Part shown: positions 10,611 through 12,869 of the stretch, piece by piece
Numbering within the stretch: position 1 is the first letter of the stretch
Layout: every line of letters begins with the position of its first letter
Virus record (IMG/VR): IMGVR_UViG_2645727978_000010
Direction: 5' to 3' (one strand)
DNA length: 38,285 bases
Source: a virus
Lineage: Duplodnaviria; Heunggongvirae; Uroviricota; Caudoviricetes
Made by a program: the position numbers and the translations under genes
The notes under the pieces: generated by a model
What the model saw: only the letters and a program-made list of their open reading frames with translations
What the model was told of the DNA's origin: nothing
The model's database searches: none

Positions 10611-10881
10611 TTAAATTTAGCACTGTTAAAAATTTAATCCTTAACCGGAGGGATTTCTGCACCCTCAGAACATCAGGAGGCCGCCCGAAAGGGCGGAACA
10701 GATAATGCTTACGTTGAAACATTTTATCGACATACCAACATGGTTAGCCGTCATTGCTTTTGTTAAAATACACATCCACTTTTCTGTGCAATGTTTAACC
10801 ACTGGTCATATCAAATGGCATTCATGCGAACCATGATATAGAATCATGGCTTGAGAGAGTCGATGAAAGCGCAACTATGGT

Positions 10882-11460
10882 ATGAGAGACATTGATGTAA
10901 GAAAGGCTGTGCATGCCAAGATTTTGAGAGATCATCATAAAGATCCTGACACCCTAATCATTGATGAGTTTACGATGAATCTGGGGGCTAGCAGAGCTGA
11001 TATAGCAGTGATCAATGGGCTTATACATGGTTATGAGTTGAAGAGCAAAAGTGATAACTTGCTCAGATTACCAGCGCAGGTGCAACATTACTCATCAGTG
11101 ATGGATAAAGTAACGTTGGTTGTCTCTGATTGCCATCTTTATGATGCTTTAAGCATAGTTCCATCATGGTGGGGGATAAAGCAAGTTACGCAAGGTGCAC
11201 GGCAAGGTATCCATTTAAAAACAATTCGAACTAGCAAGTTGAATCCACAAGTGGACAAACTTTCCTTAACAATGCTTCTTTGGAAAGATGAATTGCTTTC
11301 CCTATTAAGTGATGTAGGGGAGCTACAGAATTTGAAAAATAAACCTAAACGCGTCTTATGGTCAAAACTCGCCAATAGTATGGATGTTGGCGAGCTTCGT
11401 GAAGCTGTTCGAGTTAAACTTAAAGCCCGTAAAGAGTGGCGAGTTGCTCAACAACCTTAG
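10882..11460 (+). CDS. Predicted PD-(D/E)xK nuclease-fold protein (192 aa); sce7726-like by recollection
   Basis: Track ORF with ATG start; AT-rich; motif IIDEF...RADIAVINGLIHGYELKSK fits the D...D-x12-ExK restriction-endonuclease-like signature; family assignment not verified. Confidence 0.6.
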   Translation: MRDIDVRKAVHAKILRDHHKDPDTLIIDEFTMNLGASRADIAVINGLIHGYELKSKSDNLLRLPAQVQHYSSVMDKVTLVVSDCHLYDALSIVPSWWGIKQVTQGARQGIHLKTIRTSKLNPQVDKLSLTMLLWKDELLSLLSDVGELQNLKNKPKRVLWSKLANSMDVGELREAVRVKLKARKEWRVAQQP

Positions 11461-12517
11461 TTATGTGATGGTTTTGCCCAATCCTACGCCATACCTCTGG
11501 GCTACCAAATTTATAGTTACCAGAGGGATTGGCTTTGTAGGCTTGATACTCGTTTGCATAATATTCTATGTCTCTATCTCCCGCACAGAATGTAGGCCCT
11601 GAATATTCTCGATGAGCAAGAATATCCTCACTATGTTTACCATATTGTTCATAACCAAAGCGATTAGCTACTCTTCCTCGAAATACCCAAAAGTCATTAT
11701 CTCCAGAGTATCTGACGCTGGCAGATACGCTAGGGAATCGCGTCGAAAGCCTATTAAAGTCGGGGTGCTGTACTCCATAATCACTATAAATCACATTTCT
11801 GGCAAGTTCTTTTCTATTCATTAAACTCTGCCATAAAATCCACTCGATTCGAGGTTGAGAATATAGACCAACAGAAATATCACTGAGATCTGTAGGAAAT
11901 GAACCCCCAGAAAGAATCACTTTTCTGTATTCATTGAGGTGCGCCAGATTGTTTATCAATCCCATTGCCAAAGTATATAGTTCGCCGGAATTAAGTTTAT
12001 CCTCGGTTAACTCATCTCTTAAGTCAATAATTATATCAATATTTGATAAAGGAATTCCCAGATGATTAATGTAATGCGTTATTAATTGTGGGTTAACCAG
12101 ATCTAACGTGGTTAATCTCAAGCATATTTCATTCTGCATTAATTCATCAATCGCTCCTTTATAGTTAGATGGGCGAGTTGGTGAACTGACAGGAATAACT
12201 CTTATCCCCATATCTCTAACTTGATTAACCGCATTTATTATAGGGTAATGATCTTCAGGAGAAATAAAATGCTCTTCAATTAATAATCCATCAATATAAA
12301 CACCTTGCATATCTGAGCAAGATTTTGAGACTTTCTTTCCGAACTCTATAAGAGTCTCGTTATAACTCTTTAAGGCAATACCTGAATCAGGGTCAATTGG
12401 CACTGGTTCAATTTCGAGTAATGGCAAAATTTTTGATTTCTTTTCAATGGATAGCTGCGATAAAGCTGATAACTCAGAACGTTTCGCTTTCAGAATAGGA
12501 ATATATGAAATTGTCAT
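11420..12517 (-). CDS. 365-aa protein of unknown function; 'beta protein'/sce7725-like by recollection
   Basis: Track ORF with ATG start and AAGGT RBS (rev-comp of 12518-12535); AT-rich; convergent with the nuclease-fold gene with 41-bp 3' overlap; N-terminus MTISYIPILKAKRSEL recalls that family. Confidence 0.6.
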   Translation of the reverse strand: MTISYIPILKAKRSELSALSQLSIEKKSKILPLLEIEPVPIDPDSGIALKSYNETLIEFGKKVSKSCSDMQGVYIDGLLIEEHFISPEDHYPIINAVNQVRDMGIRVIPVSSPTRPSNYKGAIDELMQNEICLRLTTLDLVNPQLITHYINHLGIPLSNIDIIIDLRDELTEDKLNSGELYTLAMGLINNLAHLNEYRKVILSGGSFPTDLSDISVGLYSQPRIEWILWQSLMNRKELARNVIYSDYGVQHPDFNRLSTRFPSVSASVRYSGDNDFWVFRGRVANRFGYEQYGKHSEDILAHREYSGPTFCAGDRDIEYYANEYQAYKANPSGNYKFGSPEVWRRIGQNHHITKVVEQLATLYGL

Positions 12518-12869
12518 GTTAATACCTTATACAGAATCAATTAACAATTAATGGTTCTTCGGACATTGAAATTTATATCGCAAAAATTGGCAAACTCTCC
12601 TCGACTACTCACTTGTGGGTATCCTGGCGTAAAAGGAATGACTTGGCAATACCCGGTGTGATCATAAGTCATTGAAAATGATCATTTTTATCAGTCTTTC
12701 TTCCATGATGAATGCTAATGCCATTTGATTTGTTGAGGTAAAAACTGTTAAAAATCAAAACGATGTAATTGAAATGAACGTTCGGTAGCATTCACGCTTT
12801 AAATGTTTCTTTTGTGCTGATTGGATGAATTTTGGTCACTTATGATGAGAGATGTTGCAGGAAAAGAAG

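Follow-up and report, generated by a model that had tools for sequence, protein, structure and literature searches.

The locus and its two genes

We analyzed a two-gene cassette in a 38,285-nucleotide stretch of tailed-phage DNA (Caudoviricetes; IMG/VR record IMGVR_UViG_2645727978_000010), the whole of which is referred to here as the window. The cassette lies in a Rac-like lambdoid prophage and combines a predicted nuclease gene related to phage P4 cII with a gene of the P4 beta family. The open reading frame (ORF) listing confirms the two convergent frames and the 41-bp 3' overlap at 11420-11460 that a preliminary description, made from the sequence alone, had reported. That description called the cassette uncharacterised, a label that overstates the case for a catalogued family with two validated relatives: the pair is homologous to P4 beta/cII and to PD-lambda-2 C, both part of validated systems, RefSeq already has names for both proteins, and the GenBank phage Rac-SA53 carries the same cassette with its genes labelled 'beta' and 'CII phage-like protein'. 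The family matches reported below, together with hundreds of homologues, indicate that both ORFs are real genes and not chance frames. The coding features, taken from the ORF listing and, for the catalytic core, from an alignment of 104 homologues and a structure model, are as follows.

10882..11460, plus strand: nuclease gene, 192 amino acids (aa), ATG start; sce7726 / P4-cII-like, predicted PD-(D/E)xK effector
10966..11043, plus strand: predicted catalytic-core codons of the nuclease (E29, R38, D40, E52-L-K54)
11420..12517, minus strand: beta-family gene, 365 aa, ATG start; predicted TIM barrel, proposed sensor/licensing partner
11420..11460, both strands: 41-bp dual-coding 3' overlap, encoding residues 180-192 and the stop codon of the nuclease as well as residues 353-365 and the stop codon of beta

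The 192-aa protein is a predicted PD-(D/E)xK nuclease

The 192-aa protein is a full-length member of the NCBIfam family sce7726 (NF033832; 191.1 bits against a cut-off of 70, 1.7e-56) and matches the PADLOC model cll at 2.4e-28; PHROGs matches for the two cassette proteins were obtained at 4.8e-144 and 3.2e-52. The restriction-endonuclease-like signature pointed out in the preliminary description is present as IIDEF (residues 26-30) and RADIAVINGLIHGYELKSK (residues 38-56), and is backed by the predicted fold and by an invariant active site. Indeed, E29, R38, D40, E52 and K54 are conserved in 104/104 non-redundant homologues, every locus architecture included, and the same holds for D58, R62 and Q66 just downstream of the core. 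The structure model folds as a PD-(D/E)xK domain in which the alpha-beta-beta-beta-alpha-beta core is present, with the catalytic residues on strands 1-3 like those of canonical enzymes. Modeling and alignment therefore support the assignment of a PD-(D/E)xK fold with an intact active site.

The modeled core is common to 3dnx (SPO1766), the Can2/Card1 nuclease domain, NucS and type II restriction enzymes, and the E...D...ExK catalytic constellation of these PD-(D/E)xK nucleases is also found in the 192-aa protein. It differs from these enzymes by an additional C-terminal helical domain and in being small and stand-alone, with neither a CARF nor another sensor domain. Comparison of the nuclease and beta families with PDB chains by sequence yielded no meaningful match to solved structures.

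The 365-aa partner belongs to the beta family

The partner is a full-length member of the Pfam family Beta_protein (PF14350; 7.7e-52, 177 bits against a cut-off of 27). It scores best on the PADLOC PD-Lambda-2_C models (PDLC03983, 2.8e-41; PDLC03984, 6.8e-38; both full length), and the PADLOC 'beta' model matches it only at 2.8e-4 and only at the N-terminus. The preliminary description had likened its N-terminus to the paired sce7725/sce7726 families. The sce7726 half of this comparison corresponds to the 192-aa nuclease, whereas the other half does not stand: the 365-aa partner is a Beta_protein that reaches 12.2 bits on the sce7725 model NF033831, for which the cut-off is 60, over its N-terminal 35 residues only.

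The structure model of beta is a predicted TIM barrel. Six residues (E15, D76, R134, D165, D246 and H351) are near-invariant across the family, P4 beta and Escherichia coli PD-lambda-2 C included. Among the fold matches, DpdA and TGT are indistinguishable from dozens of unrelated barrels, and Pfam and NCBIfam scans of both cassette proteins detected no methyltransferase or other known modification domain.

A near-obligate pair joined by a phase-locked overlap

Using beta as the query, we retrieved 137 loci from species-representative genomes and IMG/VR, in addition to P4, Rac-SA53 and the window. In this set, 134 sources yielded both genes; the two are adjacent and convergent in 133/134 and overlap at their 3' ends in 132/134, by 20-140 bp, P4 being the convergent exception. 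The reciprocal retrieval, with the nuclease as the query, found beta adjoining in 79/80 loci and convergent in 78/80. The pairing is near-obligate in both directions, though not universal, and agrees with the conserved pair envisaged in the preliminary description.

The convergent overlap is kept down to ~25% identity and spans Patescibacteria, Acidobacteriota, Bacillota, Bacteroidota, Planctomycetota, Myxococcota and others. In the beta-based set, 106/108 loci have an overlap length of 2 mod 3, as do 76/79 loci in the nuclease-based set; in 115 of 134 distinct pairs, the beta stop codon faces homologous nuclease positions (180-188). The fixed phase and the homologous position of the stop codon argue for an overlap that is ancestral and dual-coding, not repeatedly re-invented.

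Such extreme conservation makes a regulatory role for the overlap plausible. Convergent transcription without a terminator should leave the two mRNAs with complementary 3' ends, and the type I toxin-antitoxin loci txpA/RatA and bsrG/SR4 of Bacillus subtilis, which have convergent 3'-overlapping transcripts, offer a precedent for regulation through such complementarity. The cassette departs from these loci in pairing two conserved genes that each encode a protein, and in having a phase-locked overlap that is coding on both strands. Folding of the overlap RNA revealed no significant hairpin. A bidirectional terminator embedded in the overlap was considered and rejected, as the RNA folds no better than shuffled sequences (z -0.1 to -1.6) and the terminator scan stayed at background.

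Relationship to P4 gop-beta-cII and PD-lambda-2

The P4 order is gop(+), beta(+), cII(-); the last two genes are convergent and bear the same two RefSeq family names as the cassette proteins. BLASTP aligns the window beta with P4 beta (23% identity, E 5e-9) and the 192-aa protein with P4 cII (28% identity, E 2e-17), both over their full length. The homologous beta and cII genes, their convergent layout and their location in a mobile-element cargo slot are features that P4 and the window have in common. The two differ in that the window has no gop gene, P4 cII bears a ~70-aa C-terminal extension without counterpart in the 192-aa protein, and the 3' overlap of the window is replaced in P4 by a gap of 27 bp with an annotated terminator. 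No gop remnant was found in the window (tblastn of P4 Gop, best E 1.2; no PADLOC gop match), and a phmmer search for gop across ~220 loci recovered it only in P4.

P4 gop-beta-cII, catalogued as Rst_gop_beta_cll in DefenseFinder and as gop/beta/cll in PADLOC, protects against lambda and P1 (Rousset et al., PMC9122126). Gop is toxic without beta, which suppresses Gop killing, according to Ghisotti 1990 as cited in PMC9122126; beta and cII are non-essential in P4 (PMC9122126). Cell death mediated by gop-beta-cII is triggered by the phage accessory gene orf184 (Silas et al., bioRxiv 10.1101/2023.04.06.535777).

PD-lambda-2 comprises a HigB-like component A, an Xre-M78 peptidase B and a 'P4 phage beta-like' C (Vassallo et al. 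2022, PMC9519451). B is toxic and is neutralized by A, and C is needed for defense, not for neutralization (PMC9519451). C is a full-length homologue of the window beta. In contrast to PD-lambda-2, the window holds neither a HigB-like A (no ORF or PADLOC match next to beta) nor a B protein with an Xre helix-turn-helix and an M78 peptidase (ORFs, PADLOC), and the published PD-lambda-2 has no nuclease component, unlike the window. Having neither gop nor A or B genes, the window represents a minimal two-gene form. Our literature search returned no paper on the stand-alone beta/sce7726 pair, and the searchable literature contains no description of the two-gene form, of the near-constant nuclease partner of beta or of the phase-locked overlap.

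Locus architectures

We classified 107 non-redundant beta-retrieved loci by the genes surrounding the pair. PD-lambda-2 A and B lie directly upstream of beta in 40/107 (B at 1e-145 to 1e-156, A at 2e-37). The nuclease is the fourth gene in 40/40 of these environmental PD-lambda-2-like loci, convergent with C and overlapping it by ~50 bp (e.g. L022:3474-6663), and falls outside the published three-gene definition of the system. These loci are L017, L020, L022-L028, L030-L033, L035-L038, L042-L048, L050-L052, L056-L058, L060, L061, L063-L066, L069, L071, L074 and L078.

The E. coli PD-lambda-2 locus, L140, was found through a short blastn match; a protein search with E. coli PD-lambda-2 B gave more than 7,000 environmental relatives. 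Components A, B and C of L140 were confirmed at 98, 588 and 517 bits, and the B matches in L022, L017 and L140 have E-values of 1e-145 to 1e-177. A six-frame search (hmmsearch --max) of L140 detected no nuclease gene or degraded remnant beside C. The published PD-lambda-2 clone reached only 396 bp past C.

In 11/107 loci, an unrelated and unannotated gene of ~200-240 aa is found directly upstream of beta (L040:4375-4980, L076:4255-4983, L062:4264-4956 and eight others, from Acidobacteriota, Gemmatimonadota, Dehalococcoidia and others). Pfam, PADLOC and NCBIfam give no match to this gene, which may constitute another accessory module of the family. The gene upstream of beta is gop in a single locus of the 107, P4 itself. 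About 50/107 loci have no conserved third gene, and upstream of beta they show a gap that measures 100-300 bp. A second E. coli prophage subfamily (L186-L222, e.g. L200:4001-5630) is also two-gene and is inserted between lysis and terminase genes; its nuclease and beta are 54% and 30% identical to those of the window, and its overlaps measure 11 or 59 bp.

The mobile or defense-related contexts anticipated in the preliminary description were recovered beyond the prophage cargo slot of the window. Chromosomal loci without PD-lambda-2 A/B have serine recombinases, integrases, insertion sequence (IS) elements, P4-alpha-like primases, a phage portal gene and Rha as neighbors, single loci of this kind have BREX, IetAS or a methyltransferase nearby, and IMG/VR contigs also carry the pair. 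In Samsonia and Cedecea (L003:1395-4097, L004:1340-4216), a window-like two-gene cassette has a gene for a large Toprim (P4-alpha-like) primase within a few hundred bases, which points to carriage on satellites of the P4 type or on integrative elements in addition to lambdoid prophages.

In two independent isolates, an IS1 insertion or rearrangement splits beta and leaves the nuclease ORF intact (L226:2312-4185, from E. coli PEC209, and L112:5001-7897). The PEC209 nuclease has a protein accession identical to that of intact loci.

Proposed function and rival explanations

Homology to the validated gop-beta-cII and PD-lambda-2 systems leads us to propose, with moderate confidence, that the block is a self-contained, mobile two-gene anti-phage cassette of the beta/cII family, probably of the abortive-infection type. 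We infer a defense activity of the two-gene form, a division of labor between its products and regulation via the overlap, along the following lines. Beta and cII would be the conserved core common to P4 gop-beta-cII and the environmental PD-lambda-2-like systems, with the predicted PD-(D/E)xK DNA nuclease as the active effector. Beta, a putative TIM barrel with a conserved polar pocket, is likely an enzyme or a ligand sensor; it would detect infection, probably via a phage protein trigger, and then license the nuclease instead of acting as a simple antitoxin. Complementarity of the mRNA 3' ends could couple expression of the two genes by antisense pairing or polymerase collision. On indirect evidence, we favor licensing by beta over an antitoxin role: in PD-lambda-2, C is dispensable for neutralization although defense depends on it, and the nuclease is intact in the two IS1-type disruptions of beta. 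The in silico checks by which the preliminary description might have been overturned returned a nuclease-fold match, a conserved pair and mobile or defense contexts, none of which speaks against it.

Several observations weigh against a defense cassette that works in this way. The slot is not a clear defense hotspot, as its other cargo consists mostly of small genes without assigned function, plus one ParDE pair. Our literature search found no experiment on the two-gene form. Promoter and terminator scans, including the count of sigma-70-like sites in the region, did not exceed shuffled sequences, and a sigma-70 scan of the minus strand upstream of beta (12518..12892) passed no site and hence found no beta promoter. 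The modeled fold of beta gives generic matches, so that no activity can be assigned to it. The IS1 events could reflect target bias, beta being larger and more AT-rich. Finally, the nuclease is not the universal effector of beta-containing systems, since the accepted toxin is Gop in P4 and the M78 peptidase protein in E. coli PD-lambda-2, a locus that works without a cII-like nuclease.

The tight pairing of nuclease and beta would also be expected of a toxin-antitoxin, or addiction, module that stabilizes the prophage, the nuclease being a constitutive toxin, beta its antitoxin and the overlap akin to type I toxin-antitoxin RNAs. ParDE in the same slot of a relative, hok/sok adjoining the cassette and the suppression of Gop killing by beta in P4 (Ghisotti 1990, as cited in PMC9122126) point in the same direction. 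We nevertheless consider such a module unlikely: both IS1 disruptions of beta occurred independently in viable strains with an intact nuclease ORF, toxin neutralization is independent of PD-lambda-2 C, and beta is a predicted TIM barrel with enzyme-like invariant residues, unlike known antitoxins. Moreover, the cassette genes are convergent, whereas those of type II toxin-antitoxin systems are co-transcribed. A role in the phage life cycle, either in lysogeny control, as the historical P4 name cII would have it, or in DNA repair or recombination, following the MmcB-like label found in some databases, appears improbable. The genes are non-essential in P4, no more than 1.7% of E. coli genomes carry the pair, which occupies different prophage slots, and it is also chromosomal in many phyla, where it is fused to HigB/M78 defense modules.

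Convergent gene layouts are common among restriction-modification systems, and beta could in principle mark self by modifying DNA or nucleotides while the nuclease restricts unmarked incoming DNA. We judge this more improbable still. The cognate methyltransferase of a type II system was not found in either cassette protein, nor was any other known modification domain, and the resemblance of beta to DpdA/TGT does not separate from that to dozens of unrelated barrels. Disruption of beta is tolerated with the nuclease intact, E. coli PD-lambda-2 beta functions without any nuclease, and gop-beta-cII acts as trigger-activated cell death. Least probable of all, and in our view very unlikely, is a non-functional, decayed remnant of a gop-beta-cII system (three genes) or a PD-lambda-2-like system (four genes) that has lost its toxin module. 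The window does hold no gop, HigB or M78 peptidase, but both ORFs are intact with every invariant residue, identity is at least 99% in 92/93 genomes, ~50 diverged loci and the second E. coli subfamily have a two-gene layout as well, and there are no pseudogene fragments beside the pair.

Beyond the anti-phage cassette that we propose for the window, a broader scenario is possible, although we regard it as doubtful: beta and the cII-like nuclease might form an ancient autonomous immune module that is the true core of both gop-beta-cII and PD-lambda-2. Beta would then be a TIM-barrel enzyme or sensor licensing the nuclease, the overlap would be a regulatory device controlling the relative amounts of the two proteins, Gop and HigB/M78 would be add-on effectors, and the PD-lambda-2 definition would miss the fourth gene of most non-E. 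coli loci.

P4 gop-beta-cII and PD-lambda-2 are validated systems of unknown mechanism that have the beta protein in common, and the near-constant partner of beta, joined to it by a dual-coding overlap across phyla, is a predicted active nuclease. With 2.2 kb and two proteins, the cassette offers a minimal tractable system for what beta does, and it is suited to testing for regulation of an immune module by a 3' antisense overlap. Defense-system catalogues could likewise be re-examined for the genes that PD-lambda-2-type loci contain.

Non-coding features of the cassette

The cassette and both of its upstream regions are contained in a single AT-rich segment, delimited by comparison with related prophages and by GC content, with the following non-coding features.

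10697..12892: cargo segment, 2,196 bp, AT-rich, comprising the entire cassette and both upstream regions
10807..10822, plus strand: left arm of an inverted repeat that brackets the cassette; contains ATCAAATGGCATT
10815..10844, plus strand: candidate sigma-70 promoter (ATGGCA-18-TAGAAT) of the nuclease gene, 38 bp ahead of its start codon; 9/12 matches in a consensus scan
12518..12892, minus strand: upstream region of beta, 375 bp non-coding, followed by hok/sok
12717..12732, minus strand: right arm of the bracketing inverted repeat, ~200 bp ahead of the beta start codon

The repeat arms are 16 nucleotides long and 94% complementary. Exactly two copies of the motif ATCAAATGGCATT are present in the window (10810-10822, plus strand; 12717-12729, minus strand), against 0.13 expected, and both lie within the cargo segment in the same orientation upstream of each convergent gene. 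The motif may represent an operator common to both genes or have arisen by chance; a conserved operator was rejected, the motif sequence not being kept in diverged homologous loci. An Rfam scan detected no family inside the cassette itself.

Genomic setting and carriage in E. coli

The preliminary description had placed an AT-rich block between the replication module and hok, and this setting was recovered: GC content is 0.34-0.41 across 10501-13000, with flanks at ~0.46-0.56. Replication-module genes (ydaV, DUF1627 and DUF977) lie on one side of the cassette, and hok/sok, followed by the nin region, on the other. The hok/sok type I toxin-antitoxin locus directly adjoins the cassette at 12905-13230, with an Rfam sok match at 12905-13080 (121.7 bits) and the hok/mok ORF at 13018-13230. 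Homology to the Qin-like prophages L143 and L144 ends at position 10696 and restarts at 12893; both carry ~1.1 kb of other cargo in the same slot. From the different cargo of these related prophages, the variable segment can be delimited as 10697-12892.

Another related prophage carries a ParDE toxin-antitoxin pair after the same replication module (L145:6046-6608), and the cargo of other prophages in this slot consists of small DUF7167 or hypothetical genes. This variety indicates that the slot is a general cargo position.

An identical locus was found in 93 of 5,426 complete E. coli genomes (1.7%), always with both genes together, and the cassette is intact, at an identity of at least 99%, in 92 of these 93 carriers. 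Many of the carrier genomes listed belong to the O111, O26, O121, O103 and O55:H7 lineages, and the E. coli prophages carrying the stand-alone pair include Shiga toxin-producing E. coli (STEC) lineages. Elsewhere in the window, further dips in GC content (0.37-0.42) at 4001-5000 and 33501-34000 could mark other cargo genes.

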